Shown: positions 1,249-54,915, counted from the stretch's first letter. The stretch is 64,000 nt of DNA from Ostreococcus lucimarinus (GCA_000092065.1 CP000581.1); one strand, 5' to 3'. Numbers and translations are program-made. The notes: a model not told the origin generated them from the letters alone.

Positions 1249-2813
1249 TCAACGCCTCGTCGGCGCGGTGTTTTGACGAAGGATGTTGTTTCGACTCTTG
1301 ATCGCTTTGCTACCGCTGCCCTCGTTCGCTATCGCTCCCACTTGCATGTACGGATATTCTCCGGCATGTCCGAGCAGACGCGGCGGAAATTCTAATGTTC
1401 CGAGCGCGAGGGTCGTTACCGATTTAAGTTTTTCACTCGATACCGGCGTGAGGATGTAAACGTAGCGGTTGTCAACATCGATTCCTCTCACGACGCCGAC
1501 GCCGACGCATTCAGCGCAATAGCGTCCAGGTGCGGCGGATTTCAACAGTCCGACGACCGCACCGTTGAGCGCCATCAGCGCCTCGCGCGCATCCAAATCG
1601 CTTTGCAATACGTGCAAAGTGATGTCGTCAAACGACACGCGCCACGGTGTCGCCGTCGTCAAGTCGAAAGCCGTCGCCGCGAACGCTTCGTTTTCGCCCA
1701 AATCGTCCAGTTCGAGAGCGCCTTCGTGAGGTCGCTCGTTGCACATCGCCACTGTTTGTCGAGACCAAGCGAGCCAGGACAACGCGCGCGAATCGCTGGG
1801 TGACCTTTTCGTGTCTTTCGACTTCGTCCCGCCCGGAGACGCATCGTTCGCGATGTTTTCGTACGTTTCTACGCTCGTCTCCTCTGTCTCCGCGTCGGCG
1901 CCCTTTGGCGCCGTCCCGAAACCGGCGGCGACTTCGTACGTCGTCACTCGCGGGTTCGAAGTCTCCGGAACGTTTGCGTCGTGAAACCAGTACACATCGT
2001 CGGGCACGTTCCTACTCGCGACGTGCGAATTTATGTTAATCACGTAACACGATTCCGTGCTTCGACCGACGGCGCGCAGAATTTCCTCCGCGAGCTCCAA
2101 TCCGAGTCCCTTCACCCAACCGCTCGCGTTCACCACGAGCGCCGGTTTGTCTTCACCCAGCGCCGCCCACGCGTCGACGCACGCGAGTGCCCCTTCGACG
2201 TACGCGTCTGGATCGCCCTGCGGGCTCACGTCGCCGACGAAGCTCGCGTACAGCGGCGCGCTCGGAGCGCCCTCGAATTCCGCGCCGCTCGCCTGATGCG
2301 TCTGCGGCGGCCCGAGCAACGGCGCGCGTAAAATCGTCAGCGACACCATCCCGGGCGCCGTCAACTCGGGCTGTCCACAATCCAAATCCAACCACCCACA
2401 CACCCCTCGTTCGCGCAAAATCACGTTCGCCGCGTGCCGAGCGAGCGTGCTCTTCCCCACGCCCTTCGGCCCGACGAACGCCGCCGCGAACGCCTCCCTC
2501 GTCCTCGTCGCCGCCTCCCGCACGCGCGTCAGCGCGCGCTCCCAATCTCTCGACACCATCGTCGGCGTCCATCCCAACGCCCGCGCTTCCCTCGCCCCGC
2601 ACACCGCGTACGCCCCGCCGCCGCGCACCGCTCGGAACTCCAACGTCGCCCCGCCGCCGCCGCTCGCCGCGCACGTCGTCGCGCTCGCCATCCCCGCCGC
2701 GCTCCGCACCACCACCTCCTCCGCCGTCGCCCGCGACGCCGCGAGCGCGTACCCGCCGACCGTCACCGCGCCATCGACGCACCGCGCGACGCACGCGCCG
2801 TCCACGCACGCGA

Positions 2814-2848
<35 letters not shown>

Positions 2849-2982
2849 CGCGAAAGCGCGATCGTTCGACGCTCGACGCCGTACGGCGCGCGAACGGCGC
2901 GCGTCGCGCGCGCGTCGTCGCCGTCGCGCGCGCCGTCGTTTTCAGCGCGCGCGCGCGACGCGCGGCGCTTCCTCGGCGGCAT
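1249..2982 (-). CDS. Clp1/Grc3/NOL9-family polynucleotide 5'-hydroxyl kinase
   Basis: P-loop 'FVGPKGVGKST' embedded in a Clp1/Grc3-like central domain. Protein is about 577 aa. Confidence 0.55.
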
Positions 2983-3020
2983 CGAGTGCGGCGACTCGAC
3001 GCGCGCGACTCGACGACGCG

Positions 3021-4001
3021 ATGCCGCGCGCGACCGCGACCGCGACGGCGCGCGCGACGGCGCGCGCGACGGGACGCGCGCGGACGCGGACGCGGACGCG
3101 GACGCGCGCGCGCGACGCGCGACGCGCGCGCGACGGCGACGCGCGACGCGGGACGGACGCGGCGGCGGCGACGCGACGCGACGCGAACGCGCGACGCGTG
3201 ACGAGCGCGCGCGCGACGGGACGCGACGCGAACGCGCGACGGACGTGCGAGGTGCACGACCTGTCGACGGCGCTGACGCCGTACGACGAGGCGTGGGCGT
3301 GGCAGCGAGGATTTCTCGAGCGCGCGCTCGAGCGCGGCGACGACGCGAACGACGCAGCGATACTGCTGCAACACCCGCCGACGGTGACGCTGGGCGCGGG
3401 ATCGACGGTGGATAACTTGAAATTTAACGTCGATCGACCGCCGACGGGGTTCGAGGTGCGACGGTGCGAGCGGGGGGGGGAGGCGACGTATCACGGGCCG
3501 GGGCAGTTGGTGCTGTATCCGATTCTAAACTTGGCGCGCGCGCCGCACGAGGCTGATTTGCACTGGTACATGCGCGCGCTGGAATCCGTGGCGCTGGAGG
3601 CGATGATTGAGTTAGGGTTGGACGCGGCCAAGTGCGGACGCGTGGATGGGTTGACGGGGGCGTGGTGCGACGGGCACAAGGTGGCGGCGGTGGGCGTGCG
3701 CGCGCGACGATGGGTGTCCTACCACGGCGTCGCCCTGAACGTCTGTCCCGACCTCTCGCACTTCGCCAACATCATCCCGTGCGGCATAGGCGATAAACCG
3801 GTCGGTAGCGTCTCCCAGCTCTTGCGAGGGGACGTCGGTCTGGTGAGTTCGGCGTCCGAAGCCACGCCGCTCGTCCCTCGCGAGAGCGCCGACGCCGACG
3901 ACGTCGCGTTGATGCTCGACGCTCGCGACGCCTTCCTGAGCGCGTTCGCGCGCGTGTTCGATTTAGATTTAGAAATCACTCCGACCAAGCCATCGTTTTA
4001 G
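3021..4001 (+). CDS. LIPB: Octanoyltransferase LipB (lipoyl(octanoyl) transferase) with an Ala/Arg/Thr-rich organellar presequence
   Basis: C-terminal 200 aa match the LipB catalytic domain ('LQHPPTVTLG', 'YHGPGQLVLYPIL', 'KVAAVGVR...YHGVALNV'). Start is placed at the first in-frame ATG (3021) that does not overlap the convergent Clp1-like gene; the track ORF extends back to 2187. Confidence 0.7.
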   Translation: MPRATATATARATARATGRARTRTRTRTRARDARRARDGDARRGTDAAAATRRDANARRVTSARATGRDANARRTCEVHDLSTALTPYDEAWAWQRGFLERALERGDDANDAAILLQHPPTVTLGAGSTVDNLKFNVDRPPTGFEVRRCERGGEATYHGPGQLVLYPILNLARAPHEADLHWYMRALESVALEAMIELGLDAAKCGRVDGLTGAWCDGHKVAAVGVRARRWVSYHGVALNVCPDLSHFANIIPCGIGDKPVGSVSQLLRGDVGLVSSASEATPLVPRESADADDVALMLDARDAFLSAFARVFDLDLEITPTKPSF

Positions 4002-10479: not shown

Positions 10480-11940
10480 TTAAATTAACGTCGCGAACGC
10501 GACCAAGGACCCGAAGGCGAGCGCCGCGGCGACGCCGGCGGGCGCGCCGCTCGAACGCGGTTCGTTGTCGCGAGCACTCATATATGCATCGTAGTTTTCG
10601 AGCGTAATATCATTCGGGCATGACGTATCGGCGCACTTTGAAGTTGATAAGCACAGTCCGTAGGTCCCGCAGCAATCGTTCGCCGTGCAAATTGATTCGA
10701 GATACGAAAGCGTCGGCGCGCCGCTCGAGCATTGAAAGTCGCAGTTCGGCACTTGTCGAGTCACCATTTCACCATCAGGGCAACGCAGAACGTCCGGTGG
10801 ACAGTGAGTGAAACCATTTGGGCCCGAGGATGTCTCGACGCTCGGTCCAGGTGCGGGAGCCAAATCATCATCGTCGACGAAGCCGTTATTCGACACGCCA
10901 TCCGTTTCAAGCATCCAGTCGATGAGAGAAGGGCCAAAATCTGCCGTAAAGGTCAGCGCGGTCGCGAGTTCGGTGTTCAAACCCGAAACAAGTCGAAGCT
11001 CGGTGCGACCACCGACGTCGCACTGGCTCGTGTTGCCAAAGTGCACGAGATCAGTATCTGGGTTGTTCGGGAGCAGCTTTTGGCGAGAGACGAGCGCGTC
11101 TGCAGTCGTGACTTTCGCCGACGCATCGCACCCGTTGTGATCGGCCCAGCCAGCCAACGTTTGTTCAACGGAAGGTACAGGTTTACCTTCGAATCGACCG
11201 CCATCGACGGGAATGTTGTCGAGTTCACCATGGATGGCCAAGACGTTCACTGGCGTCTTTGTCGTCGCCGTGAACGCGGCGCAGTTGGATTGCGCGTCCG
11301 CGAAGGTCAGACCAGAGATAGATACGATACCCGAGATTAAATCGGGCTTCTCGCAAGCCATGCGATACGCCATGAACCCACCGTTCTCCCAACCGACGAT
11401 GTAAACCTTGTCCTCGGCGACGTTGTACTGAGACTTCACGGCTCGGATGACTTGCGCGAGATGTTCGACGTCGTCGACGGGTTCCCACGTCTCCGGATCC
11501 CCCGGGCGTAACGAGAAGCGTCCAGCTGCGCAGCACGCGGGTGTTGCAGCCCAAGATCTACATCCGTAGCGAGTGTTCAAAATACCACCAAGTCGAGTGC
11601 ACGATGAGCACCAGAATCGATTTCTCGTCCCTTCGGGAAGTGCGAGGATGAACTCGCGAGAATCCACCTGCTCGGTGAAGCGCAAAATTCGGTTTGTGGA
11701 GTCGCCATCCATGCAGCGCCCGTGGAGAAGAACGATGAGAGGAACATCTGGTGGTACATTTGTCGCGTTATCCTCGCCGGGCACGGAGACGTCGGGGATG
11801 TAGAGCGTGATTGGGTCTCTGTCTTCTCCCGAGGCGTACACGATGTCCACCTCCTGCCTCGCGACGGCGGAGACGCGAGAGGCGCCGAGCAGTAAGATGA
11901 GAAAAACCGAGTAGAAAGCGCTTGAGACTTTGCAAATCAT
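10480..11940 (-). CDS. Secreted alpha/beta-hydrolase esterase (PHB-depolymerase/feruloyl-esterase-like) with a C-terminal Cys-rich module and a hydrophobic C-terminal tail (GPI-anchor or TM)
   Basis: Signal peptide 'MICKVSSAFYSVFLILLLGASRVSA'. 'LIVLLHGRCMDG' and 'YIVGWENGGFMAYRMA' (GxSxG-like nucleophile elbow). About 100-aa Cys-rich C-terminus ending in AAALAFGSLVAFATLI. Start is placed at the internal ATG (11940) that gives the signal peptide; the ORF extends to 12288. Confidence 0.5.
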   Translation of the reverse strand: MICKVSSAFYSVFLILLLGASRVSAVARQEVDIVYASGEDRDPITLYIPDVSVPGEDNATNVPPDVPLIVLLHGRCMDGDSTNRILRFTEQVDSREFILALPEGTRNRFWCSSCTRLGGILNTRYGCRSWAATPACCAAGRFSLRPGDPETWEPVDDVEHLAQVIRAVKSQYNVAEDKVYIVGWENGGFMAYRMACEKPDLISGIVSISGLTFADAQSNCAAFTATTKTPVNVLAIHGELDNIPVDGGRFEGKPVPSVEQTLAGWADHNGCDASAKVTTADALVSRQKLLPNNPDTDLVHFGNTSQCDVGGRTELRLVSGLNTELATALTFTADFGPSLIDWMLETDGVSNNGFVDDDDLAPAPGPSVETSSGPNGFTHCPPDVLRCPDGEMVTRQVPNCDFQCSSGAPTLSYLESICTANDCCGTYGLCLSTSKCADTSCPNDITLENYDAYMSARDNEPRSSGAPAGVAAALAFGSLVAFATLI

Positions 11941-12020
11941 AGTGTTGTGTTTGAAGTTGAGTCTGAAATGCACGACTATTCGCGCGCGAGTCTCGAAATG
12001 GCGTCCATATAACGCCCGCG

Positions 12021-12147
12021 TCTCGGGCTCGTCGCGCCGCCTCGGGAACGCCGCCTCGATTCGATTCATAACAACACCGACGTGCCTGCCCCTCGGGCTC
12101 GTCGCGCCACCTCGGGAACGCCGCCTCGATTTATAACAACACCGACG
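12021..12147. repeat. ~60-bp tandem direct repeat (2 copies, 12021..12082 and 12091..12147). The second copy includes the last codons and stop of the LRR-CBM1 gene.
   Basis: 'ctcgggctcgtcgcgcc[g/a]cctcgggaacgccgcctcgatt...ataacaacaccgacg' occurs twice in tandem. Confidence 0.8.
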
Positions 12148-13768
12148 AAGGTTGACACTGCGAGTAATACGCATCAAAGTACACGCAAGAGTTGCCAGGC
12201 GCACAGCACTTGGGTCCGTCGTAAAGTGCGCCGGCGCACTGCTCCCACTGCGCGTTACAGGGCAGGCACTCGGACCTGTCGTCGTCAATTCGAGTGCACG
12301 TTAGACCGCGCTTGCAGCAAGTTGGGCCGTCGAAAGATTTCCCACCACATTTCTGATACGCGTCTGAACATGGCACACACTGCTTCCCACCGAACTCGAA
12401 AGGAACGCTGAGACACGTACCTTCCTCGCAGCACGTTTCTTTCCTTCCGCTGAGTTCCCAGATGGAACAGCCTTCGCCTGGCGCAGCGCATTGACATGAC
12501 CCCAAACCGAGAAGCGTGCCCGCTGTTTCCGGCCAAAGTTGACAAAGTTCCCACGGTTTGTCGCACTCGGCTTCCTTTTGCTCCTTCGTGGCGAATGGTA
12601 AGTCTGGAAGTGCACCGCAAAGCCCAGCGTTGTTTGCCAGGCTAATCATTTTGAGATTCGGCAGAGACGCCTTGGATAGAGTCACCGGACCCGTGAATCG
12701 GCAGCGATCGAGCAGCACGCCCTCGAGCCGCTTTAGCCGAGAAAGTTCGTTGATCGAACCCGTAAGCAAATTTTCGTGCACGTCGAGGAACGTCAAGTTT
12801 CGCGGTAGGAATCGAGGTAAAGTTCCGCTCAAAAAGTTGCCTTCGACGATCAAGGACTCGAGCGCCAGGGCGGAGGACCAGTCGCTCGGTATAAACCCGC
12901 TGATGAAGTTATCGTCCAGATTTAACGTTCGAAGGCGTGGAAGTGTGGCGAGCTCTTGTGGAATGGCGCCGTGGAGTTGGTTCCCGGACACGTCCATGGA
13001 TTCGAGTTCGACGAGATTCCCGACGCTCGCCGGGAGAGCGAGACGATCCGTCTTCAAACCGAGCATATTTCTGTGCAAATTCAACTCTCTGAGCTTGACG
13101 AGATTACCGATTTCTGCGGGAACGCTGCCCGAAAGTTGATTGCCAAAGTGAACCCCCGGAAATCCGTACACTTCGCGCTTGTCGACGGGTACCGACGCGT
13201 CGAATCGTCTCTGTCTCTCTGTGAAGCCGCCGTCCAAATTCAGGACTTCGAGCGACGTCAAAGTCCCGATCGACTTCGGAATCGGTCCCTCGAGCGTGTT
13301 CAAATTCAAATGCAGCTCCACGAGATTCGGCATCGCCAACAAGAACTCCTCGGAAATCGTTCCCTCGAGCGCGTTATCGCTCGCGTCCAACGTCGTCAAC
13401 CGCTCCATCCTCGGCACGCGCGCCGGCAGCCTCCCTCGCAGCCCTCGTCCGCGCAACCGTATCTTCACCACCCTCCCGTTTTCATCGCACGCCACCGTCC
13501 CGTCCCCGATCGCGCACACGTCCCCGATCGCCAGCGCGCGTCCCAGCGCCTCGTCGTCCCTCGCGCTCGCCAGCAGCGTCCTCACCGCCTCCGCGTCGCC
13601 CGCGTCCGTCGCCCGCGTCGCCATCGCTCGCATCGCCGCCATCGCGACGCACGTCGCCGTCCCCGCGCGTCGCTTTCGCCCCATCCCGTCGTCGTCGTCG
13701 TCGTCGTCGTCGTCGCGCCTTCGCGTCGCACCGTGTGGTCGACGACAATCGGCGACACAAAACGTCAA
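12131..13768 (-). CDS. Leucine-rich-repeat (plant extracellular type) protein fused to two C-terminal fungal-type cellulose-binding modules (CBM1)
   Basis: LRRNT-like cap '[23 protein letters not shown]' followed by about 10 LRRs (LxxLxLxxNxLxGxIP). Two CBM1-like modules: '[32 protein letters not shown]' and '[32 protein letters not shown]'. Poly-Asp is encoded by a (GTC)9 run near the N-terminus; true start (13768 or the later ATG) is uncertain. Confidence 0.6.
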
Positions 13769-21566: not shown

Positions 21567-23494
21567 TAAAACCAGAAATTGACGCTCACGGACGAGGTCA
21601 AGGAACGGACGTAGTGCCAGTGACCTTTGGGCATGAACAGGACGTCGCCGGGCGCGAGGATGGTTTCCAGAAACTTTGCGGCGAGCGCGCGGGGATGCTC
21701 GCGAGAGACGGTCGGGCTCTCGGGATCGACGGGCGACCGGGTGAAATTATTCACGTTTGAGCCGCGCAGGGTGTCGGTGTCGGCGACGTAAAGGTGTGGA
21801 GTCTCACTCACGGCGTAGATGCGGACGTATTTGTACCCGGATACTTGGCAGAGGAGGTTGAGGTACGGGTCGCGATGAATCGCGGTTCTCGTGCCGGCCG
21901 TGCCCAGCCACAGGTTGACCGCGGATGTCTCCACGCGAAGCCTGCCTAAGGTGTACGGAATCACCGTGAACGTGCTCTGAAGTTCGGGTATTTGGTGGAA
22001 TATCGGGTGCTGCGAGACGTACGCCACCTTGTCGCTCGTCGGCGCGCCGTCGTGCGCCGCGTTGGAAGGCGCGAGAAAATCGCGCGCAAACGATCCGAGC
22101 GTGGTGATCCCGACGCCGTGGCTATCGAACGCCGTACCGTATTCCACGGGAACGATTGTGTCCGCATACTTTTCGAACGCGTCGAGATTTTTAAAAACGT
22201 CCAACGCGGCCCAGTTCTCGCCGTCCTCGTCGAGATGGCCTCGAATCACGACCGGAGTCTCCGAGGCGACGAAGTCTGCGTAAAATCGCGGCGCCGTTAA
22301 CGAGCGCGCGTCCTCGAAATGAATCTGTCGGCTCGGTTCGATCGTCGGAACCCCACTCATCGGTAGCGTCGTCGGAATCGCGCTGTTCAAAGGAAACGCC
22401 CGGCGTCCCTCGGCGTCGTCGGGCTGAAACGCGCGTTCGACGAGTAAAATGGCGCTCGCGCACCACGTCGGAACGCACCCTCGCTCGAATAACGTCGTCG
22501 CGGTGAGTAAATCCAACCCAATCCTCCCCAGCCGCTCTCTCGCGCTCCATTCCGCCCCCCGACACGCCGCGCTCGCCGTGGGATCGTCCTCGAGCGCGCC
22601 TTCGTCGACGTCTTCCCCCGCGTCGCTCGCCGTCGCCGCGACGCCCGCGACGACGAGCCATCCGTGCGCCAGCGTGTGCGCCTCCAAGAACCCACTCACC
22701 GGCCAATTCCCTCGTCCCAACTGTTCGCCGCACGCCTCGATCGTCCGTTTCGCCCATCGCGCGCACGCGTCCCACGTCTCCGCTCGCGCGTTCGCCGCGC
22801 ACCTCGCGAGCGCGTCCCTCGCGCGTCGTCCGCTCGGCGCGAACTCCTCCAGCTCCGCCGCCGTCGACGCCCACCCCGCGTCGTGCGCGCGCGCGATTTC
22901 CTCCGCCACCGCTCGCGCGTCGCGCGTCGCGCCGTCCCTCGCGCGCGCGCCGCTCCACAGCTCGCGCGCGTTTTCGAAGAACGCGTGCGTCGCCGCCGCG
23001 CGCGCGTCCCTCGCGTCGTCGCGCGCGCGCGCCGTCGTCGCGCGCGCGCCGTCGTCGCGCCCGAACGCGTCCCACGCGTCGGCGGTCGCCATGCGCGCGC
23101 CGCTGTCGCGACGTCGCGTCTTCGCGGCGGCGCGGCGCCGATCGACACAGAACGACGCTCGGATGCCGGCCGAGGAAGACGCCGTCGAGCTCGGCTCGTG
23201 CTTCGAGCGGTTCACGAGCGCGGTGTGCGCGTCGTCGGCGTTCGGCGCGGTCGTCGGGTGCGCGCGCGCGGCGTGGGGGGCGGACGCGCCCGCGGTGTTC
23301 CGATCGCGCTCGTTTCCCGCGGTCGCGAAGACCGCGGGCGCGCTCGCGAGCGGCGCGGCGCTGTTCGGCGCCATCGGAGGCGCGTACGCGAGCGTGACGT
23401 GCGCGGCGGAGAGCGCGCGGAACGCGAGGGACGCGTACAACGGCGCGCTGGGGGGGCTGGCGAGCGGCGCGGTGGTGGGGTTGCGCAACGGCAA
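21566..23494 (-). CDS. JmjC-domain protein, JMJD5/KDM8-like (paralogue 1)
   Basis: C-terminal cupin 'WLGTAGTRTAIHRDPYLNLLCQVSGYKYVRIY...GDVLFMPKGHWHYVRSLTSSVSVNFWF' (HxD...H Fe(II) triad). Ala/Arg-rich helical N-domain. Confidence 0.7.
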   Translation of the reverse strand: MPLRNPTTAPLASPPSAPLYASLAFRALSAAHVTLAYAPPMAPNSAAPLASAPAVFATAGNERDRNTAGASAPHAARAHPTTAPNADDAHTALVNRSKHEPSSTASSSAGIRASFCVDRRRAAAKTRRRDSGARMATADAWDAFGRDDGARATTARARDDARDARAAATHAFFENARELWSGARARDGATRDARAVAEEIARAHDAGWASTAAELEEFAPSGRRARDALARCAANARAETWDACARWAKRTIEACGEQLGRGNWPVSGFLEAHTLAHGWLVVAGVAATASDAGEDVDEGALEDDPTASAACRGAEWSARERLGRIGLDLLTATTLFERGCVPTWCASAILLVERAFQPDDAEGRRAFPLNSAIPTTLPMSGVPTIEPSRQIHFEDARSLTAPRFYADFVASETPVVIRGHLDEDGENWAALDVFKNLDAFEKYADTIVPVEYGTAFDSHGVGITTLGSFARDFLAPSNAAHDGAPTSDKVAYVSQHPIFHQIPELQSTFTVIPYTLGRLRVETSAVNLWLGTAGTRTAIHRDPYLNLLCQVSGYKYVRIYAVSETPHLYVADTDTLRGSNVNNFTRSPVDPESPTVSREHPRALAAKFLETILAPGDVLFMPKGHWHYVRSLTSSVSVNFWF

Positions 23495-23674
23495 GGTCGG
23501 ACACGCGGCGAGCGCGGGGGCGGCGTTCGCGCTCGCGAGCGCGGCGGTGGACGCGTCGGGACGGAAGATCGCGCGAGGCGACGCGTGGGAAGACAGGGCG
23601 ACGCCGGAGCGGATCGCGTATCCGTATCGCGAAAGACGCTAGGGCGAACGCGAGGCGATCGAGTCGAGCGGGAC

Positions 23675-23676
<2 letters not shown>

Positions 23677-23706
<30 letters not shown>
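23677..23706. repeat. (GAC)10 trinucleotide microsatellite in the JmjC/EXO1 divergent promoter
   Basis: Perfect gacgacgac... run. Confidence 0.85.
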
Positions 23707-23711
<5 letters not shown>

Positions 23712-23955
23712 AGGCGCGCGCGCGTCGGAGACGCACCGCGAGGACGGACGAGTCGATGCCGCGATCGTCATCGCGATCGACGCCGCGCGCGTATTGTAAC
23801 ATCATTCGAGGACGTGAAGTCGAACATCTTCGTCGCGCGCTTCGATTTCGCGGCGTCGAATTGAGATTCAAACCACCCGCGACAGCTCCTCCATAAATCG
23901 CCGCTCGACGTCCGCGCGCGCCTCGCACTCGCGCGCGGACGTCGACGCGATCGGC

Positions 23956-25779
23956 ATGGGCATCGCGTCCCTCCTTCCGACGCTGAAATCCATCTCAAGA
24001 CACGCGCACGTCGGCGAAACGTACGCGGGACAAGTCGTTTGCGTCGACGCCTACGTCTGGCTTCATCGCGGTGCCTACGCGTGCTCGCGCGAGCTGTGCG
24101 AGGGATTGCCGACGCGCAAGCACGTGGAATACTTTTTAAATCGCGCGCGAACGCTGAAACGGGCGAACGTGCGGGCGATATACGTGTTCGACGGTGGACG
24201 ATTGCCGGGGAAGGCGAACGAGGAGGCGCAGCGGAGACGAAATCGAAGCGAAGCGCTGGCCAAGGCGAAAGCGCACGCGAGGCAGGGGAACGCGAGCGCG
24301 GCGAATGATTTTTATGTGCGAGCGGTGGATATCACGCCGGAGATGGCGCGGGAGGTGATCGAGGCGCTGGCGAGGGAAGGATTCGAGAGCTTGACGGCGC
24401 CGTACGAGGCGGATGCGCAGATGGCGTACTTGGTGAAGAATGGCTTCGTGGCGGGAGTGATCACGGAGGATAGCGATTTGATCGCGCATGGGTGTCGGAG
24501 CGTGTTCACAAAGATGGCAGGTGATGGTTCTGGCATAGAAATCCGCTTCGAGGAGTTGGGGAGGAATCGCGGGTTGAGTTTCGTCGGGTTCACGCCCGAT
24601 ATGTTTTTGGAAATGTGCGTACTCAGCGGGTGTGATTATTTACCGTCTTTGAACGGCGTGGGGGTGAAGAAGGCGCACAGCCTGATTCGAAGATTCAAAA
24701 CTTACAATAAGGTCTTGCGTCACATGAAGTTTGAGGGGATAGCGGTGCCGAAGGATTACGAGTCGCGTTTCGTCGACGCGTTGCTCACGTTCAAATATTC
24801 GTGGGTGTATTGCCCGCAAAGGCGAGAGATCGTGAACTTGAACGATCCAGTGGGGGTGTTGGATCAGAGTTTGATTGACGACTTACCGAGACTCATAGGT
24901 GCGTATCATCCGCCCGAGGTAGCGAGAGCGTTGGCGAACAACGAGGTGCATCCAATGACGCTCGAGGCTTTCGGCGGAGTGCGAGCGCCTCATCGTCGAC
25001 AGCACATAGCCGCGTTGGCGCCATCGACGAGCGCGCCGATCCTAAGGCCTGAAGACGCATGTGACGACGACGCGCTCGGCGCGCTGCCGGAAAGACCTTT
25101 GACATCGACGAAGCAAAACGCTTTCACGAGTTTTTTGCGCGAAAAGCCCGAGGACGACGTGCAGACGTATCGAGCTGCGCTCGTGCGCGCAAGTGCACCG
25201 ATGCAAATCGTGCAGCCACCTCGCGTCGGAAAGTCGTTTTACGCCGCGATCCAGGGTCACGAGATTAAAACGCCGCTGGATAAGCGGCTGCGTAGACAGA
25301 GTACGGATCGCCCGATCGTGGCCCGCGAAGAGGCGCTGAGAGTGCCGGACTCGGTGGAGAAGATCACGCCCAAGCATAACTCGCGATTGCCGAAGGATAT
25401 TTCAAACATTACGGGACGCGTGATTTACGAAACACCGATCGTGCAGACGTCAGTGAAGAAGAGTCCATACTTTGCGAACGTGAAGACGCCGCCGAAATCA
25501 ACCGGACCATCCGAGTTGTACGCAAAGATCGCGAAAGATTCGATCGATCGAGTCAAACAGAGCGTACATGTCGAACTCGGCGTCGCGGAACCTTCGACAC
25601 ATGCCACCAAGCGCCAAGAACGAACGCCGACGAGAACGACACCCGCGAGAGCGGCGAAGAAGTCTCGCGCCGCCGGGACGTCGTCGAGCAGACGACGCGG
25701 CGACGGACAAAAGCGAAAAACCGGTAACGACAAGTTTTGGCAAATGTCGCTCTTCGAGTCGTTCGCGTTCGAAAAATAA
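23956..25779 (+). CDS. EXO1: Exonuclease 1 (XPG/Rad2-family 5'-3' exonuclease)
   Basis: 'MGIASLLPTLKSI' XPG-N, 'YVFDGGRLPGKANE', XPG-I 'APYEADAQMAYL...ITEDSDLIAHG', H3TH 'VLSGCDYLPSLNGVGVKKA'. Confidence 0.8.
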   Translation: MGIASLLPTLKSISRHAHVGETYAGQVVCVDAYVWLHRGAYACSRELCEGLPTRKHVEYFLNRARTLKRANVRAIYVFDGGRLPGKANEEAQRRRNRSEALAKAKAHARQGNASAANDFYVRAVDITPEMAREVIEALAREGFESLTAPYEADAQMAYLVKNGFVAGVITEDSDLIAHGCRSVFTKMAGDGSGIEIRFEELGRNRGLSFVGFTPDMFLEMCVLSGCDYLPSLNGVGVKKAHSLIRRFKTYNKVLRHMKFEGIAVPKDYESRFVDALLTFKYSWVYCPQRREIVNLNDPVGVLDQSLIDDLPRLIGAYHPPEVARALANNEVHPMTLEAFGGVRAPHRRQHIAALAPSTSAPILRPEDACDDDALGALPERPLTSTKQNAFTSFLREKPEDDVQTYRAALVRASAPMQIVQPPRVGKSFYAAIQGHEIKTPLDKRLRRQSTDRPIVAREEALRVPDSVEKITPKHNSRLPKDISNITGRVIYETPIVQTSVKKSPYFANVKTPPKSTGPSELYAKIAKDSIDRVKQSVHVELGVAEPSTHATKRQERTPTRTTPARAAKKSRAAGTSSSRRRGDGQKRKTGNDKFWQMSLFESFAFEK

Positions 25780-25866: not shown

Positions 25867-26490
25867 TCACCGCCTCGCGAACGCGTTCGGGATTCGCCCC
25901 GTGCGCACATCTCGCAGCATTTCCCCCGACCGCGCGTGCTTCTCCATCAATCTCGCGCGCACAAACTCGCTCGCCGTCTTCGGCACCGCCCCCCCCCCGT
26001 CGTCGTCCTCCGCGTCCAGCGCCACGACCTCGAAACCGTCCCGCTCGTACGCCCGTCGTTTCGCCTTCTTCCCCTTCTTCTTCTTCTTCTCCCGCTTCCG
26101 CTCCCCCATGTGCGCCTCGTACGCGTCCAACTCATCGTCATCGCGCCTCGCCCGCTTCTTCTCCCCGAACACCGCGTCGACGACGCTCTCCGGCAGCGCC
26201 TCGAGTTCGTCATCCGCCGCCGCCGCCGCCATCGCCGCCTCCGTCCGTTTCGTCCGCGCCTCCGCCTTCGCTTTCGCGCGCGCGTCCTCCGCGTCTCGTC
26301 GCGCGACTTTCGCCGCGTTCTCGCTCGCCTTCGCGCGCGCCCGCGCCGCGCGCTCGTCGTCGCGCCGCCTCGCGACGTCGGCGCGCGCGCCGCGTCCCGA
26401 CACTTCCTCGGGCGCGTCGTCGTCGCTCGCGCCCGCGTCGCGCGCGCCGCGCGTCGTCGTCGCGCGCGCCGATCGACGCGTCGCCGGCAT
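25867..26490 (-). CDS. Hypothetical highly charged (Arg/Asp/Lys-rich) protein, nucleolar-type
   Basis: ORF with coherent codon usage on the strand opposite a spurious overlapping ORF. KKKKKGKKAKRR basic patch. Confidence 0.35.
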   Translation of the reverse strand: MPATRRSARATTTRGARDAGASDDDAPEEVSGRGARADVARRRDDERAARARAKASENAAKVARRDAEDARAKAKAEARTKRTEAAMAAAAADDELEALPESVVDAVFGEKKRARRDDDELDAYEAHMGERKREKKKKKGKKAKRRAYERDGFEVVALDAEDDDGGGAVPKTASEFVRARLMEKHARSGEMLRDVRTGRIPNAFARR

Positions 26491-26582
26491 CGCCGCGCGT
26501 CGATCGCGAGCGCGCTCGCGCGCGTCGTCGTGTGGCCGTCGCGCGCGCGCGGTCGCGTCGATTCGTCACTCGGCCGCGCGCC

Positions 26583-27311
26583 ATGACGCGCGCGCGCGCG
26601 ACGAGCGAGATCACGTGCGGCGACGCGCGACGAGGGTGCGGCGCGCTGCTCAGCTACCCCACCGGATCGCCGCTCGTGCGGTGCGCGCTGTGCGATCACG
26701 TGACGCGAACGCCGGCGGCGACGGATCCGACGCGGCGACGCGCGGTGGCATTCGATTTCGATTTCGACGACGCGGGCGCGCGCGACCGCGAGGCGCAGGC
26801 GCGGTGCGTGGGATGCGACGTCGTCATGCGATTTCCCGCGGACGCGACGCACGTGCGGTGCGCGATGTGCGACGCGGTGAACGTGAACGCGCGAACGGGG
26901 ACGAGGGCGCCGCGCGCGAGCGGGACGCGAGCGTCGTCGGCGCTCGCCGCGCGCGACGCGGCGCGGGAGCGCGCGACGCGGAACGCCGACGACGCTTGGG
27001 CGCGAGGGACGGCGTACGTGCGGTGCGAGGGGTGTCGGGTGACGCTGGCGTATCCGGGAGGGTCGGCGTCGGTGCGGTGCTCGGCGTGCGGCGCGGTGAC
27101 GCGGTGCGCGGAACGCGCGACGCCAAGCACGACGGGGGAGGGGAGTTCGGTGAAGAGCGCGCGGGGAGGAGACCACGCGACGTTGACGAGCGACAATTTA
27201 GTCGTCGTGGAGAATCCGCCGACGGTGAGTGAGAGTGGGAAAATCGTGTCGAACATCGCCGTCGGCGTGCGGTTGGGGAGCGACGGCGGGGAATCGCGGC
27301 GCGGCGAGTAG
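26583..27311 (+). CDS. LSD1-type zinc-finger protein (three zf-LSD1 repeats)
   Basis: Three CxxCxxxLxYPxGxxxVRCxxC repeats: 'CGDARRGCGALLSYPTGSPLVRCALC', 'CVGCDVVMRFPADATHVRCAMC', 'CEGCRVTLAYPGGSASVRCSAC'. Confidence 0.75.
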   Translation: MTRARATSEITCGDARRGCGALLSYPTGSPLVRCALCDHVTRTPAATDPTRRRAVAFDFDFDDAGARDREAQARCVGCDVVMRFPADATHVRCAMCDAVNVNARTGTRAPRASGTRASSALAARDAARERATRNADDAWARGTAYVRCEGCRVTLAYPGGSASVRCSACGAVTRCAERATPSTTGEGSSVKSARGGDHATLTSDNLVVVENPPTVSESGKIVSNIAVGVRLGSDGGESRRGE

Positions 27312-27435
27312 GACGTAGTCATTTCGCGGTCGAGCCGAGAAACGCCGCGATCGAGATGAATGTGTTTTGTAGCACTATTTTACAAGCAAGCGTGTATCGA
27401 TACAACCCCGATCCGAGAATCCGAGGTCTCCCGTC

Positions 27436-28116
27436 CTAAATCTTCTCGATCGCCCTAATCTTAAAGCCCAACGCTATCCACTCCATCTCCAAGTCCCGAA
27501 CCGTGCTCGGCATGTCCGCGTACTCCGGTTCGCGCGCGAACCGAATCAAAAAGTTCGTCCGCCACTCCGACAGGCGTCTCGCCAGCGTCACGTGCCGCAG
27601 CACGTGTTCTCCCAGAAAATTTTCGTACGACTCCCCGCCCGGCTCGAAATCGCTCGTCGCCATGTTCGCCTCCTTCAACCGTTTCGACACCGCCTTCATC
27701 GCCCGCACCTTTTCCTCGAACGCCTCATCTCGCGTCGACTCACCCGGCTGTCGATGCAGCGCCAACCACGCGCCTCGATACTCGTACTCGTCCGCCGTCT
27801 CCGCGTACCGCCACGTCTCCCCTCCCTCGCTCGTCGCCGTCTCCCCGCCCCTCGCCGCGCGCTCGCCCCAGTCCGCCTCGTTCCTCTCGCGCTTCATCCG
27901 CTCCGCCCGTTCGACCGCGTTCGCCGTCCAATCGAACCCGTTTCGCTCGCGAAACGTCGTTCGACGTCGTCCGTCCCGGACGCGCGTCGCGCGTCGTCGC
28001 CGTCCGTCGTCGTCGTCGTCGCGCGCCGTCGCGCGCCGAGCGACGCGCGATCGCGACGCGCTCGAGCGCGTCGCGCGCGCGCGCGCCGTCGCGACGCGCG
28101 CGCCGAGCGACGCCAT
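27436..28116 (-). CDS. Hypothetical protein with Arg-rich presequence
   Basis: ORF only. The C-terminal ~120 aa is non-low-complexity. Confidence 0.35.
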   Translation of the reverse strand: MASLGARVATARARATRSSASRSRVARRATARDDDDDGRRRRATRVRDGRRRTTFRERNGFDWTANAVERAERMKRERNEADWGERAARGGETATSEGGETWRYAETADEYEYRGAWLALHRQPGESTRDEAFEEKVRAMKAVSKRLKEANMATSDFEPGGESYENFLGEHVLRHVTLARRLSEWRTNFLIRFAREPEYADMPSTVRDLEMEWIALGFKIRAIEKI

Positions 28117-33858: not shown

Positions 33859-35232
33859 CTAAATAATATGCGCTCGCGCCGCGTTCGACCTCGACGACGT
33901 GCCTCTAAACATCGAGGACGACTGCTTCGCCACTACCCCGCTGTCGTCGTCGTCGTCTGCTACGGAAAACGCCGACGGAACGTTCGTGAACGCGACTTCC
34001 CGAAACTCTTCGCTCAGGCGAGAGAAGTCGCCTCGAGACGATCGACGCTTGAACGAGCACGAACTTGGCAAATTGCCGTAGTAGCGAAGGACGAGCACCG
34101 ATACTATGAGAAGTACGGTCACCAGACCTACTTGTGCCCCGATGGATACCTTGGGCATCGCCAAGGATCTTCCGGTTTTCGACGCGAGCACGACGTCGCT
34201 GCACAGCACCTCGGCGTCGTTCCCGTCGAGTAGTACGAACGTTTTCCCGACGATAGATTTCGCACCGCTCAGTGGCAAGTTCGAATCGCTATACAGCACT
34301 ATTTCTGACGACGATAACGTCCCTTGTCGTACCCAAATCTCACCAATCGGGCAATCCTCGGCGAGCGCTTCCGCGCCGCGCGAGGCACACGACGACTTCT
34401 CTTCGGGATTGTACAGCCTTCCCACGTGCGCGCACGAGTTCGAGCTCCCCGCCGTACCCGAATAAATCGCCCATCGATACGGCCCGATCGCATCGCCGTG
34501 CGCGCGATTTACCAATTGAACCGAGATCCGCGTATCCGCCGCCGCGTCCGCCGCCGACTGCCGCATCGTCACCAACCCGCTAATCTTACTCAACGTCGTC
34601 CCGAGCGTCGCGCGCGCCTCGACGAATCCGTCTTCACCGTCATCTTCCTCGATCGTCGCGCACGCGAACGGAACCTTACCAGCGCTAAATCCATCTAGTC
34701 CAGCCGCTCGGTCGCCGCGCCAAACCGCCAACGCGCGTCCGCTCACCGACCGTCGTCCCGCGAGCGGTAAATTCCGATCGACGAACTCGTACGTCTTCCC
34801 GCTCACGCTCGCGATCATCCCCGCGTCCATGCGCGCGCACACGTCGCCGATCGCGCACGTCCCGCCCGCGCACGCGCCCGCGCCGCCGTCCGGATTATAC
34901 ACCTCCCCCAGCGTCGCCTCGTCGCACGCCCCGTTCGCGCCTCGACCGCGCTCGTGCACCGTGACGTGCGTCGGGAAATCATCGCTCGTCGACGACCGCG
35001 CGGCGGTGACGCGAACGCGCGCGTACGTCACCCCGCCCTCGTACGCCTGCGCGAACGTCGCCTCGACCGAGGATCCGTCGGCGTTCGTCGCGCGCGCGCG
35101 CAGCGTCTTCGCGCGCGCGGTCGTCGCCGCGGACGCGAGCGCGACGAGCGCGATCGCGCGCGCGATCGCTCGCGCGCGCGCGCCCGCGCGGCGACGCATC
35201 GCGCGCGCGTGTGCCGCCGCGTCGAGCGGCAC
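33859..35232 (-). CDS. Type-I membrane protein with two degenerate Cu/Zn-superoxide-dismutase-like domains
   Basis: Signal peptide. 'THVTVHERGRGANGACDEATLGEVYNPDG' and 'VNRAHGDAIGPYRWAIYSGTAGSSNSCAHVGRLYNPEE' resemble the SOD1 '[24 protein letters not shown]' region, but the Zn-loop histidines are absent. C-terminal TM 'IGAQVGLVTVLLIVSVLVL'. Confidence 0.45.
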   Translation of the reverse strand: MPLDAAAHARAMRRRAGARARAIARAIALVALASAATTARAKTLRARATNADGSSVEATFAQAYEGGVTYARVRVTAARSSTSDDFPTHVTVHERGRGANGACDEATLGEVYNPDGGAGACAGGTCAIGDVCARMDAGMIASVSGKTYEFVDRNLPLAGRRSVSGRALAVWRGDRAAGLDGFSAGKVPFACATIEEDDGEDGFVEARATLGTTLSKISGLVTMRQSAADAAADTRISVQLVNRAHGDAIGPYRWAIYSGTAGSSNSCAHVGRLYNPEEKSSCASRGAEALAEDCPIGEIWVRQGTLSSSEIVLYSDSNLPLSGAKSIVGKTFVLLDGNDAEVLCSDVVLASKTGRSLAMPKVSIGAQVGLVTVLLIVSVLVLRYYGNLPSSCSFKRRSSRGDFSRLSEEFREVAFTNVPSAFSVADDDDDSGVVAKQSSSMFRGTSSRSNAARAHII

Positions 35233-35251
35233 TTCTCGCCGACGCGTCGAC

Positions 35252-35282
<31 letters not shown>

Positions 35283-35292
35283 GCGACGCGCG

Positions 35293-36087
35293 ATGACGGC
35301 GCGACGCCTCGCGCGCGAGTGCGCGCGCCGCGCCGTCGCGTCGACGACGGCGGCGACGGCGCGGACGACGACGGCGGCGACGACGACGGCGACGCGATGC
35401 GTGCAGACGTCATCGCTCGCGCGGTTCGCCGCGCCGGTGCGCGCGTTCTCGCCGAACGCCAAGCCGCGCTCGCTCGAGACGGCGGCGACGAAGGACGGAG
35501 ACGTCGTTCCCGAGCGCTCGCTCACCGGTTGGCGGCGGGTGGCGCTGACGCTGGGTGGATATTTTAGCCCGGAGAGCCGACGCGTGCGCGGCGGCGAGCG
35601 GCTGTACGAAGAGGTGACGCGGGCGACGGCGATCGATGCGCTGTACGACGCGCACGCGGTGGAAAAGACGTTCGCGAGTCGACACGCGATGATGTGCCTG
35701 CACGTGTGGATGTGCTTGGGGCGGTTGCGAAAAGAGGGAGAGGGGGGGAAGGCGTTTAGTCAGACGTTTTACGACGCGTTTCAAGACGACGTGGAGCGAC
35801 GCGTGCACGATGAGGGCGTGCGCGTGCGCGTGCGAAAGTGGTTACAGGATTTAGAGAGGACATTTTATGGGAATGCGGTGTCGTACGATAAAGCGCTCGA
35901 GCTCGGGGGTGGAGAACTCGTGAAGGCTTTGCATAGAAACGTGTACGACGGCGACGGCGACGTCGACCGCGCCAAGGGGTTGGAGCGGTACGTTCGACAT
36001 CAGCTCGCGTCGTTGGCGCTGACGCCCACGGAGGCGTTATTCGACGGGCGCGTTAGATTCGTTGGCTTCGATGAGCAAGAAGAATAG
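35293..36087 (+). CDS. CBP3: Ubiquinol-cytochrome c reductase assembly chaperone CBP3/UQCC1
   Basis: 'HAMMCLHVWMCLGRLRKEG...FYDAFQDDVERRV' Ubiq_cyt_C_chap-like block. Mitochondrial presequence. Confidence 0.65.
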   Translation: MTARRLARECARRAVASTTAATARTTTAATTTATRCVQTSSLARFAAPVRAFSPNAKPRSLETAATKDGDVVPERSLTGWRRVALTLGGYFSPESRRVRGGERLYEEVTRATAIDALYDAHAVEKTFASRHAMMCLHVWMCLGRLRKEGEGGKAFSQTFYDAFQDDVERRVHDEGVRVRVRKWLQDLERTFYGNAVSYDKALELGGGELVKALHRNVYDGDGDVDRAKGLERYVRHQLASLALTPTEALFDGRVRFVGFDEQEE

Positions 36088-36131
36088 CATCGCGGTGTAC
36101 TTTTAAAGTAATTTTTATTGACATCAGTCTT

Positions 36132-54662: not shown

Positions 54663-54724
54663 CGTCGCGCGTCGTTCGCGCGTTCGTTCGCGTCGTCTCT
54701 CGCGATCCGAGATCGCCGCGGTGT

Positions 54725-54756
<32 letters not shown>

Positions 54757-54915
54757 CGCGATTCGAATCCCGTCGCGTCCCGCCCGTGAGACTGCGTCGA
54801 TCGAGCGTTCGTGACTCGTAAAGTTGGGACTCGTAGACTCGTGGACTCAACACGGACCGCACCACCATCGCGCGCGCGGCGGCGGCGGCGGCGCCATCTC
54901 GGCGCGCGGCGCGCG

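Follow-up and report, generated by a model that had tools for sequence, protein, structure and literature searches.

Gene layout of the locus

The window, a stretch of 64,000 nucleotides of the Ostreococcus lucimarinus genome (GCA_000092065.1, CP000581.1), contains two adjacent genes on the minus strand (Table 1). The first codes for a protein that combines an LRR domain with two CBM1 modules (the LRR-CBM1 protein); the second, directly downstream, codes for a hydrolase-like protein and is separated from the first by 190 nt. The first ATG of each ORF was taken as the start of the coding sequence. The ORF scan agrees with an earlier note on this DNA as to strand, order and tandem arrangement; the end at position 13768 given in that note is that of a TTG-extended ORF, as opposed to the first-ATG coding sequence used here.

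Table 1. Features of the LRR-CBM1 and hydrolase-like genes (positions in the window)
Feature	Position	Strand	Description and basis
LRR-CBM1 protein CDS	12131..13684	-	517 aa + stop; ORF, Pfam, same layout in orthologues of 36-94% identity
Weak signal-peptide-like N-terminus	13607..13684	-	10-aa KD maximum 1.63
N-terminal cap, helices and Cys pair	13475..13606	-	AF2 helices 28-40 and 44-53, pLDDT >84
11 plant-specific-type LRRs	12596..13474	-	residues 71-363; Pfam LRR families, Foldseek, motif matches
32-aa island inside LRR4	13139..13234	-	DGGFT..Q....YG.PG.HFGN; conserved in the family
Cys-rich linker, family-specific	12374..12568	-	invariant C374, D375, K376, E379, C381, L383, W384, P385
CBM1 module 1, 6 Cys	12266..12370	-	Pfam 39.8 bits; flat-face aromatics degenerate
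CBM1 module 2, 6 Cys	12155..12259	-	Pfam 37.6 bits; canonical aromatic face W480/Y506/Y507
Tandem duplication	12014..12147	.	65-70 bp unit; final LRR-gene codons with the stop, part of the spacer
Upstream in-frame ATG	12067..12069	-	arises in the second copy of the repeat; lies 43 codons upstream of the hydrolase-like start
Hydrolase-like CDS	10480..11940	-	486 aa + stop; ORF, Abhydrolase_2 29 bits
Predicted signal peptide (MICKVSSAFYSVFLILLLGASRVSA)	11866..11940	-	hydrophobic windows 1-21, KD 1.9; heuristic; conserved in orthologues
Alpha/beta-hydrolase fold domain, PHB-depolymerase / CE1 esterase type	10900..11865	-	PDB profile matches, AF2, Foldseek
Nucleophile elbow GWENGG	11377..11394	-	Glu185 (11386-11388) at the Ser position of relatives
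Loop after last core strand, catalytic-His site (SGLNTELATALTFTAD)	10939..10986	-	no His
Cys-rich stalk, 10 Cys, no known family	10618..10803	-	conserved Cys columns; AF2 pLDDT 56-74
GPI-attachment-signal-like tail	10483..10557	-	SSGA small residues, then 17-aa hydrophobic end, no cytosolic tail

LRR-CBM1 and hydrolase-like members occur together in one database cluster at 90% identity, implying a fused gene call somewhere, but it is extremely improbable that the two ORFs are exons of one protein. A stop codon lies between them and their reading frames differ. The LRR protein finishes exactly at the C-terminus of its last CBM1 module (YYSQCQP plus two to five residues), and the second ORF begins with a classical signal peptide. 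The spacer varies in length among relatives (108, 121, 124, 167 and 190 nt, mostly not multiples of three) and its sequence is not conserved. These observations support two separate secretory genes, and a single mis-split protein, which the earlier note had kept in mind, is not what is found.

The LRR-CBM1 protein

Matches to LRR_4, LRR_1 and LRR_8 exceed their Pfam cut-offs, and tandem 23-25-residue LxxLxxLxLxxNxLxGxIP repeats are evident from Pfam, motif matches and the solenoid of the AF2 model (mean pLDDT 83, and >85 over residues 30-370). In the PDB, the top 50 Foldseek matches of the LRR model consist entirely of plant LRR receptor ectodomains (among them FLS2, MIK2, RGFR1 and HAESA). 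With these it shares the 24-residue plant-specific LRR with its LxGxIP motif, the Cys pair of the N-terminal cap and the C-terminal 'LCG' cap; the best sequence matches are 28-36% identical. A plant-type ectodomain is thereby supported, as had been proposed with about ten repeats; counted by eye, there are eleven. An LRRNT cap had also been assigned. Pfam LRRNT_2 (PF08263) matches none of ten family members at E<=0.1, nor the isolated N-terminus at E<=10; what stands of the assignment is the Cys pair and the capping helices predicted by AlphaFold. In P0010, the cap has the plant-like form C-x-W-x-G-V-x-C.

The window protein contains no transmembrane-like segment (19-aa KD maximum 1.10, threshold 1.6) and no kinase domain recognized by Pfam. 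Lacking a transmembrane helix after the LRRs and a kinase, it is not an RLP or RLK, from which the missing LRRNT_2 match also sets it apart. The signal-peptide-like character of its N-terminus is weak and is clearer in the orthologues P0004, P0259 and P0197, suggesting that the protein is secreted. Because membrane span and kinase are absent, its logic would be nearer to that of wall-anchored LRR proteins such as LRX and PGIP than to that of a receptor. These are soluble and matrix-tethered, as proposed for the window protein, but their anchors are an extensin domain or pectin binding instead of CBM1.

The island inserted in LRR4 is reminiscent of the island domains of BRI1- and PSKR-type receptors. 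Residues D151, G152, G153, T155, Q158, Y173, G174, P176, G177, F180, G181 and N182 are invariant in ten members, down to 37% identity, and the island probably forms a ligand site. The Cys-rich linker that follows the solenoid has no Pfam match; in an exhaustive search it was matched only by P0006, P0009 and P0259.

Pfam CBM_1 (PF00734) matches ten of ten orthologues; in the window protein its match covers two stretches, with 51.3 bits for the whole (E 1.1e-13). Each module, taken alone, exceeds the cut-off of 20.6 bits (Table 1), supporting the earlier reading of two genuine CBM1 modules. The CBM1 cystine framework has a minimum of four Cys, and six in EG-1-type modules. Here, the six-Cys framework of both modules aligns to EG-1 (4BMF), making them of the six-Cys 'CC' type, and is invariant (C439, C446, C456, C457, C463 and C473 in module 1; C476, C483, C493, C494, C500 and C510 in module 2). 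Module 2 aligns residue for residue to EG-1 and to the CBM of T. reesei Cel7A (1CBH, residues 3-35), with the same cystine knot of about 35 aa, QCGG...C...YSQC pattern and aromatic triad; W480, Y506 and Y507 align to Y5, Y31 and Y32 of the Cel7A cellulose-binding face, and W480, Y507, S508, Q509 and C510 are invariant among the ten orthologues. In module 1, Y442 is kept and the tyrosine pair is replaced by D/R (..DDDRSEC aligned with ..YYSQC), so that two of the three face aromatics are gone. In Bathycoccus, the CBM1 region is expanded to about five modules.

The architecture is rare: LRRs are present in four of the best 150 matches of an exhaustive search with the CBM1 region (P0006, P0009, P0259 and P0291), which bears out its description as non-standard. 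An O. lucimarinus protein with an LRR region and two CBM1 modules, ABO94230, was noted in 2011 by Jones and Ospina-Giraldo (PLoS One, PMC3160888), and is in all likelihood orthologous either to the window gene or to the gene of a 54-67% identical lineage. With the fusion already noted, nothing here overturns current views. That mention is in passing only and does not extend to function, the conserved island, the degenerate module 1, the Bathycoccus expansion or the neighbouring pseudoenzyme (PMC3160888). Calling CBM1 classically fungal, as was done for this locus, is outdated, given its occurrence in oomycetes, Porphyra and the O. lucimarinus protein (PMC3160888), and the many non-cellulase multi-CBM1 proteins in metagenomes. 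Oomycete CBEL/CBD and the polysaccharide-binding protein of Porphyra purpurea likewise carry no attached catalytic domain (PMC3160888). In comparison with the fungal, oomycete and Porphyra systems, CBM1 here has an LRR domain as its partner, not a glycoside hydrolase, an LPMO or a PAN/Apple domain.

The hydrolase-like protein

Profile searches against the PDB match the hydrolase domain to 9j07 (2.7e-28) and 8daj (3.7e-24), which are also the top Foldseek matches (E 2e-16 and 2e-14, respectively). The core of the domain is modelled by AF2 with pLDDT >90, and BLASTP aligns it to the bacterial protein P0133 with 34% identity (E 1e-41). Abhydrolase_2 scores 29 bits against a cut-off of 23, while Esterase_PHB (PF10503), at 19.6 bits, stays under its cut-off of 23. 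Relatives include metagenome proteins that are 99-100% identical and orthologues that are 41-77% identical; bacterial members of the PHB-depolymerase/CE1 group are 30-35% identical over about 300 residues. With these esterases (AoAXEB 9J07, the Lihuaxuella PHB depolymerase 8DAJ, LpqC 3D0K and bacterial 'GHSNGG' proteins) the algal protein has in common the fold, the oxyanion motif HG, the residues around the elbow, VG-x-x-NGGFMAYRMAC, and the catalytic acid, Asp within HG-x-x-D. It differs from the esterases in having Glu for Ser, no catalytic His, a 16-aa Cys-containing insertion (FWCSSC...YGC), the Cys-rich stalk and the GPI-like tail.

Glu185 aligns to the serine of GHSNGG, GKSNGG and GLSAGG, and is placed by the model at the elbow between strand 174-184 and helix 186-197. 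The motif reads G[WF]ENGG in ten of ten Ostreococcus/Bathycoccus-type sequences, versus GxSNGG in about 28 bacterial-type homologues. At the site of the catalytic histidine, the bacterial GG-x-H aligns to GLNTE in the Ostreococcus/Bathycoccus-type sequences, and the algal clade alignment contains no invariant His at any position. The acid Asp241 (11218-11220) is retained and is invariant in algal and bacterial members, and H73-G74 of the oxyanion-hole motif are conserved. A pN of 0.14-0.21 against a saturated pS of about 0.7 means that the gene is maintained by purifying selection. The earlier label of PHB-depolymerase-like esterase therefore holds for the fold; serine-esterase identity is rejected by Glu185 and the absence of a catalytic His from the ten algal sequences, and with the catalytic pair missing across the whole algal clade the term hydrolase cannot be kept. 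Judged from its sequence, the protein is a conserved pseudoenzyme. The substitution of the nucleophile and the loss of the histidine suggest that it has a non-catalytic role, as a module for binding or adhesion, and that binding, not cutting, is probably its function.

Alternatively, the invariance of an acidic residue at the nucleophile site could point to a changed chemistry and not to its loss. Glu185 would then act as nucleophile or general base in an active, non-canonical enzyme, much as Asp serves as the nucleophile in haloalkane dehalogenases and epoxide hydrolases. The invariance of the acidic elbow residue (Glu in ten sequences, Asp in P0131, together with a His), the conserved Asp241 and H73-G74, the strong purifying selection and the GY-D-xGG elbow of bacterial two-domain homologues would fit such an enzyme. 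We nevertheless regard it as unlikely: the Ostreococcus/Bathycoccus clade has no His to activate water, a ligand-binding pocket would predict the conservation equally well, and we know of no alpha/beta-hydrolase with a Glu nucleophile. In P0131, a distant homologue, an Asp occupies the nucleophile position and a His is retained.

Of all 19-aa windows, only those at residues 1-21 and 466-486 are hydrophobic. The latter are part of a tail of the pattern SSGA-PAG-VAAALAFGSLVAFATLI (KD 2.1), common to all orthologues and preceded by the ten-Cys stalk, which has no Pfam match; signal peptide, Cys-rich tail and GPI/TM-like C-terminus are thus present, as described before. GPI anchoring is feasible, as the GPI pathway genes PIG-A, PIG-M, PIG-V and an alpha-1,2 mannosyltransferase have been reported in Ostreococcus (PMC3797821). 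From its tail, the hydrolase-like protein is probably GPI-anchored at the cell surface.

In neuroligins, gliotactin and neurotactin, too, a membrane-attached alpha/beta-hydrolase ectodomain has no catalytic Ser and works through binding. The likeness to these cholinesterase-like adhesion molecules is one of function only: they are animal proteins of an unrelated subfamily, carboxylesterase type B, with a transmembrane segment instead of a GPI anchor, and homology beyond the superfamily fold is not implied. The database annotation of the window gene, 'polyhydroxybutyrate depolymerase', is misleading, a point of consequence for inventories of metabolism and CAZymes that draw on marine metagenomes.

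Inheritance and proposed roles

The order RPAP3, SERCA, LRR-CBM1, hydrolase-like, AP2, CPR is collinear in at least three Ostreococcus-type lineages. Bathycoccus prasinos (GCA_964199505.1) keeps the block, except that a gene without a Pfam match occupies the AP2 position. GC and GC3 of both genes are within the range of their neighbours. Synteny in other Mamiellophyceae, which had been suggested as a check, thus supports vertical inheritance of both genes from before the split of the two genera. Their presence in both rules out recent horizontal transfer, and the possible horizontal acquisition proposed earlier is rejected on the block and the ordinary base composition.

In the same proposal, the LRR-CBM1 protein binds carbohydrate, the adjoining anchored esterase hydrolyses it, and the pair has been horizontally acquired. 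The genes are indeed adjacent and co-oriented 190 nt apart, their adjacency is conserved from Ostreococcus to Bathycoccus, outside the algae the hydrolase domain has its nearest relatives among bacterial esterases, and acetylated or feruloylated xylan is the target of CE1-type relatives. However, serine-esterase chemistry is largely refuted by the missing Ser and His, base composition is ordinary, and a recent transfer is ruled out by the occurrence in both genera. As the whole block of at least seven genes is collinear, adjacency carries no specific signal, and P0131 has no LRR-CBM1 neighbour. A joint binding-plus-hydrolase module had only adjacency in its favour, and the proposal as a whole is very unlikely.

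We consider it reasonably probable that the locus consists of two distinct genes of the secretory pathway, inherited vertically in an Ostreococcus-type green alga (Bathycoccaceae), one for a soluble LRR-CBM1 adaptor and one for a GPI-anchored pseudoenzyme. The adaptor would be extracellular, with its plant-type LRR solenoid, containing the probable ligand site in the conserved island, tethered via the Cys-rich linker to two CBM1 knots. The planar W/Y/Y face of the terminal CBM1 should dock it onto a crystalline beta-1,4-glycan, cellulose- or chitin-like, on a surface that is either cell-made or foreign. The second protein, probably attached to the surface by GPI, would have a hydrolase domain descended from PHB-depolymerase/CE1-type serine esterases and serve in binding or adhesion. 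Ostreococcus cells are naked, and to our knowledge neither cellulose nor chitin has been shown on them, nor is a cellulose wall known. A conserved secreted LRR protein tethered by cellulose-binding modules, a kinase-less relative of plant receptor ectodomains, would imply that such 'naked' cells encounter, or themselves produce, a surface of ordered beta-glycan. The only GT2 reported in Ostreococcus is CslK (CslA/C-like) (PMC3797821).

The two proteins might also cooperate as a receptor-like pair, in which the LRR protein, tethered to a glycan, would bind a ligand and engage the GPI-anchored pseudoenzyme as its membrane-proximal partner. In the searches made, both families are equally narrow (Ostreococcus/Bathycoccus types and one unknown alga each); an extracellular location is predicted for both proteins, and the LRR island as well as the adjacency is conserved. 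Since block synteny accounts for the adjacency and P0131 lacks the neighbour, we think a receptor pair improbable. Candidate ligands would be a peptide or a viral or gamete surface protein. Even less probable, in our estimate, is the broader idea that the two together make up an ancestral system of the Bathycoccaceae for surface sensing or adhesion, one without a kinase. The LRR would then capture a virus, gamete or bacterial surface molecule, and the dead-esterase partner receive the ligand or hold the LRR at the membrane, giving a wall-less cell an algal counterpart of plant LRX/RALF/GPI-protein wall sensing. Both genera, Ostreococcus and Bathycoccus, are globally abundant and rank with the smallest free-living eukaryotes; the surface molecules that serve them in the attachment of viruses, in mating and in contact with particles or bacteria are little known.

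The tandem duplication noted earlier between the two genes, as 60 bp at 12021..12147, is real but somewhat larger (Table 1). Its copies, 12014-12061 versus 12084-12131 (92% identity) and 12061-12082 versus 12126-12147 (95%), differ by a 5-nt indel, and TRF at score 30 does not detect it. It is present in L009-L011, L015 and L016, and absent from the near-identical L014 and L017 and from other species; it is a strain-level indel polymorphism. The upstream ATG in the second copy is the start adopted in 529-aa gene calls of the hydrolase-like protein (P0121).

Gene layout and the tandem duplication

The window is eukaryotic and intron-poor, with a GC content of about 62%. The LRR-CBM1 gene and the hydrolase-like gene lie head to tail on its minus strand, separated by a spacer of 190 nt; starts were taken at the first ATGs, and the coordinates were confirmed by translation. 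ORFs, Pfam matches and translation confirm these two ORFs and the sequence features from which the earlier note set out. Its overall interpretation, a glycan-binding protein paired with a working esterase and possibly acquired horizontally, is supported in part: the binding modules stand, the hydrolytic activity and a recent transfer do not.

Positions of the features at the LRR-CBM1/hydrolase-like locus
Feature	Position	Strand	Remarks
LRR-CBM1 CDS	12131..13684	-	517 aa, upstream gene
CBM1 module 1	12266..12370	-	six cysteines and Y442 kept
CBM1 module 2	12155..12259	-	gapless alignment to 1CBH residues 3-35 and EG-1 4BMF
Tandem duplication, unit 65-70 bp	12014-12082 and 12084-12147		92-95% identical, 5-nt indel
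Hydrolase-like CDS	10480..11940	-	486 aa, downstream gene

The two ORFs are in different frames with a stop codon between them, the spacers vary among lineages, and the second signal peptide would be internal in a fused product. These features establish two separate genes, and a single mis-split gene covering both ORFs is barely credible, even though one database cluster at 90% identity, that of P0003, groups LRR-CBM1 proteins (499/527 aa) with hydrolase-like ones (477 aa). Some entry in the collection must be a fused gene call that links the two kinds; the mixture is a database artefact, relevant when members are counted.

The tandem duplication described earlier as 60 bp long is real, with a somewhat larger unit, and spans the last codons and the stop of the LRR gene. 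It is a recent strain-level indel: contigs L009-L011, L015 and L016 carry identical duplicated copies, whereas only one copy is present in L014 and L017, which are otherwise near-identical, and the duplication is absent from other species. In the second copy, a change from TTATAA to TTATGA creates an in-frame ATG (12067-12069, minus strand), which lies 43 codons ahead of the hydrolase-like start, is missing from the single-copy alleles, and is where prokaryote-style gene callers begin the hydrolase-like gene. Transcription and use of this ATG would add MNRIEAAFPRRRDEPETRALYGRHFETRARIVVHFRLNFKHNT and leave the signal peptide buried. In L014 (1368-2726), the LRR gene is frameshifted shortly before the CBM1 modules, giving a 452-aa call with no CBM_1 match; the frameshift reflects an assembly error or else marks a natural null allele.

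The LRR-CBM1 protein

Pfam CBM_1 matches two stretches with a whole-protein score of 51.3 bits (E 1.1e-13), and several LRR families exceed their cut-offs. Scanned singly, the two C-terminal CBM1 modules reach 39.8 and 37.6 bits, each passing the cut-off of 20.6 by itself, in support of the CBM1 consensus match seen in the earlier note. The three flat-face aromatic positions of a CBM1 form its binding face; in module 2 they are occupied, relative to the Trichoderma reesei Cel7A module (1CBH), by W480, Y506 and Y507, and in module 1 the alignment has DDDRSEC in place of the expected YYSQC. A third, degenerate CBM1 inside the Cys-rich linker between the LRRs and the modules was considered and rejected, as the Pfam signal is absent.

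Residues 71-363 comprise 11 repeats of the plant-specific type, counted by eye. The AlphaFold model has a mean pLDDT of 83 (>85 across residues 30-370), and the best 50 Foldseek matches in the PDB are all plant LRR receptor ectodomains (50/50), e.g., FLS2, RGFR1, MIK2 and HAESA. The LRRNT cap named in the earlier note finds no Pfam LRRNT_2 match in any family member; the model predicts a helical N-terminal cap with a Cys pair. A 32-residue island, DGGFT..Q...YG.PG.HFGN, breaks up LRR4, and 12 of its positions are invariant across ten family members whose identity goes down to 37%. The N-terminal signal peptide is weak in the window protein and clear in its orthologues. The protein has no transmembrane-like segment, 19-residue hydropathy peaking at 1.10.

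An exhaustive HMMER search with the C-terminal 163 residues against 1.84 billion representatives gave 521 matches, only three of which (P0006, P0009 and the Bathycoccus orthologue P0259) cover the linker and both CBM1 modules. Among the best 150 of the 521 matches, one more LRR and CBM1 protein, P0291, has another layout; in the other top matches examined, the partners of CBM1 include AA9, PAN and DPBB and, assigned by eye, CAP and a putative glucose/sorbosone-dehydrogenase-like domain. The fusion is therefore rare, as the earlier note held, but CBM1 is not exclusively fungal. A CBM1 tree is expected to stay unresolved because each module has only about 35 aa and shares 40-50% identity with numerous modules of fungi and protists. 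The combination of LRR and CBM1 was noted earlier in O. lucimarinus ABO94230 (PMC3160888), in 2011, the only mention that literature searches on Mamiellophyceae gave for CBM1, cellulose or chitin. The fusion itself, conserved among Bathycoccaceae, is an already known curiosity; what is new would be its neighbour, which, judged from its residues, is a conserved dead esterase.

The hydrolase-like neighbour

The hydrolase-like protein is indeed related to PHB-depolymerase/CE1-type esterases. Its best profile matches are 9j07 (2.7e-28) and 8daj (3.7e-24), which Foldseek also ranks top with an AlphaFold core of pLDDT >90, and a bacterial esterase aligns to it at 34% identity (E 1e-41). In the nucleophile region, however, bacterial relatives have VGHSNGGFMAYRMAC and the window protein VGWENGGFMAYRMAC. 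Alignments and the AlphaFold model place Glu185 at the nucleophile elbow, just where strand 174-184 passes into helix 186-197, and G[WF]ENGG is found in 10/10 Ostreococcus/Bathycoccus-type sequences, against GxSNGG in about 28 bacterial-type homologues. GLNTE stands where bacterial relatives have the GG-x-H loop, and no invariant His was found at any position across the algal clade. With serine replaced by Glu185 and the catalytic His missing, the neighbour is at odds with the hydrolysing esterase first envisaged, and the database label 'polyhydroxybutyrate depolymerase' is misleading. Asp241 and the HG motif are retained; that Glu185 performs non-canonical catalysis nevertheless appears unlikely to us.

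The distant algal homologue P0131 (L012:1952-3442, GC 0.70) has GADAGG, with Asp at the nucleophile position, and its catalytic loop still contains a His; the protein may represent an intermediate or an alternative chemistry. Two bacterial-type proteins of about 628 aa, P0140 and P0143, contain two domains, one with an Asp elbow (GYDVGG and GYDTGG) and one with a Ser elbow (GxSNGG), so acidic nucleophile substitutions recur in the esterase family outside algae. A profile search for further pseudoenzyme members gave nothing new. The hydrolase-like gene is not decaying, with pN of 0.14-0.21 against a saturated pS of about 0.7; it evolves more slowly than the LRR gene (pN 0.24-0.34) and about like the AP2 neighbour.

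The protein starts with a classical signal peptide and contains a conserved 10-Cys stalk without a Pfam match. At its extreme C-terminus, small residues are followed by 17 hydrophobic residues in all orthologues, a putative GPI-signal pattern; GPI glycan transferases have been reported in Ostreococcus (PMC3797821). We read the protein as a pseudoenzyme that would be GPI-anchored. On balance, we think it reasonably probable that LRR-CBM1 is an extracellular LRR adaptor tethered to glycan, similar in logic to LRX and PGIP, in which the LRR4 island may have a ligand role, and that its neighbour acts separately, as an anchored alpha/beta-hydrolase that would bind without catalysis.

Synteny and origin of the gene pair

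At least three Ostreococcus-type lineages share the collinear block RPAP3, SERCA, LRR-CBM1, hydrolase-like, AP2 and cytochrome-P450-reductase-like; their LRR-CBM1 proteins are 55-94% identical to that of the window, and their contigs have 59-60% GC. Bathycoccus prasinos (GCA_964199505.1) shares the block, with a gene without a Pfam match at the AP2 position. Because the entire block is syntenic, the adjacency of the pair tells little about function. No LRR-CBM1 neighbour accompanies P0131 on its contig, on which the distant-lineage test of the pair rests, those of P0010 and P0291 being too short or uninformative. A physically interacting pair of LRR-CBM1 and pseudoenzyme, as opposed to two separate proteins, is accordingly given little weight.

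GC and GC3 of both genes are within the range of their neighbours; with synteny across genera, this led us to reject recent horizontal acquisition. A binding-plus-hydrolase module gained by horizontal transfer, which the earlier note suggested as a possibility, is very improbable. After the algal clade, searches with the hydrolase-like protein return bacterial-type sequences only, and the domain may have an ancient bacterial origin.

Bathycoccus orthologues (B. prasinos L007:5849-7876, with about five, and P0259) carry about 4-5 CBM1 modules, against two in Ostreococcus-type lineages. Since Bathycoccus cells bear scales and those of Ostreococcus are naked, the number of modules may follow the architecture of the surface.

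A perfect (CGT)9.7 microsatellite (13687-13715) lies directly upstream of the LRR-CBM1 ATG, within the short spacer that separates this gene from the divergent, plus-strand SERCA-type Ca2+-ATPase gene. Four 2-kb stretches (2001-4000, 22001-24000, 26001-28000 and 54001-56000) have a GC content of about 0.70, against a window mean of 0.62; long ORFs overlap there on both strands, and the stretches are probably GC-rich coding regions. The octamer TCGAGGCG occurs at 29 sites in the window against 10.3 expected, a count reached in 0/100 shuffles; sites include 12052, 12122 and a cluster at 34029-36817, and other Ostreococcus-type lineages also have it in their LRR/hydrolase spacer. It was not accepted as a regulatory element: although enriched window-wide, it lies mostly in coding DNA, which makes codon or dipeptide bias the likely explanation.
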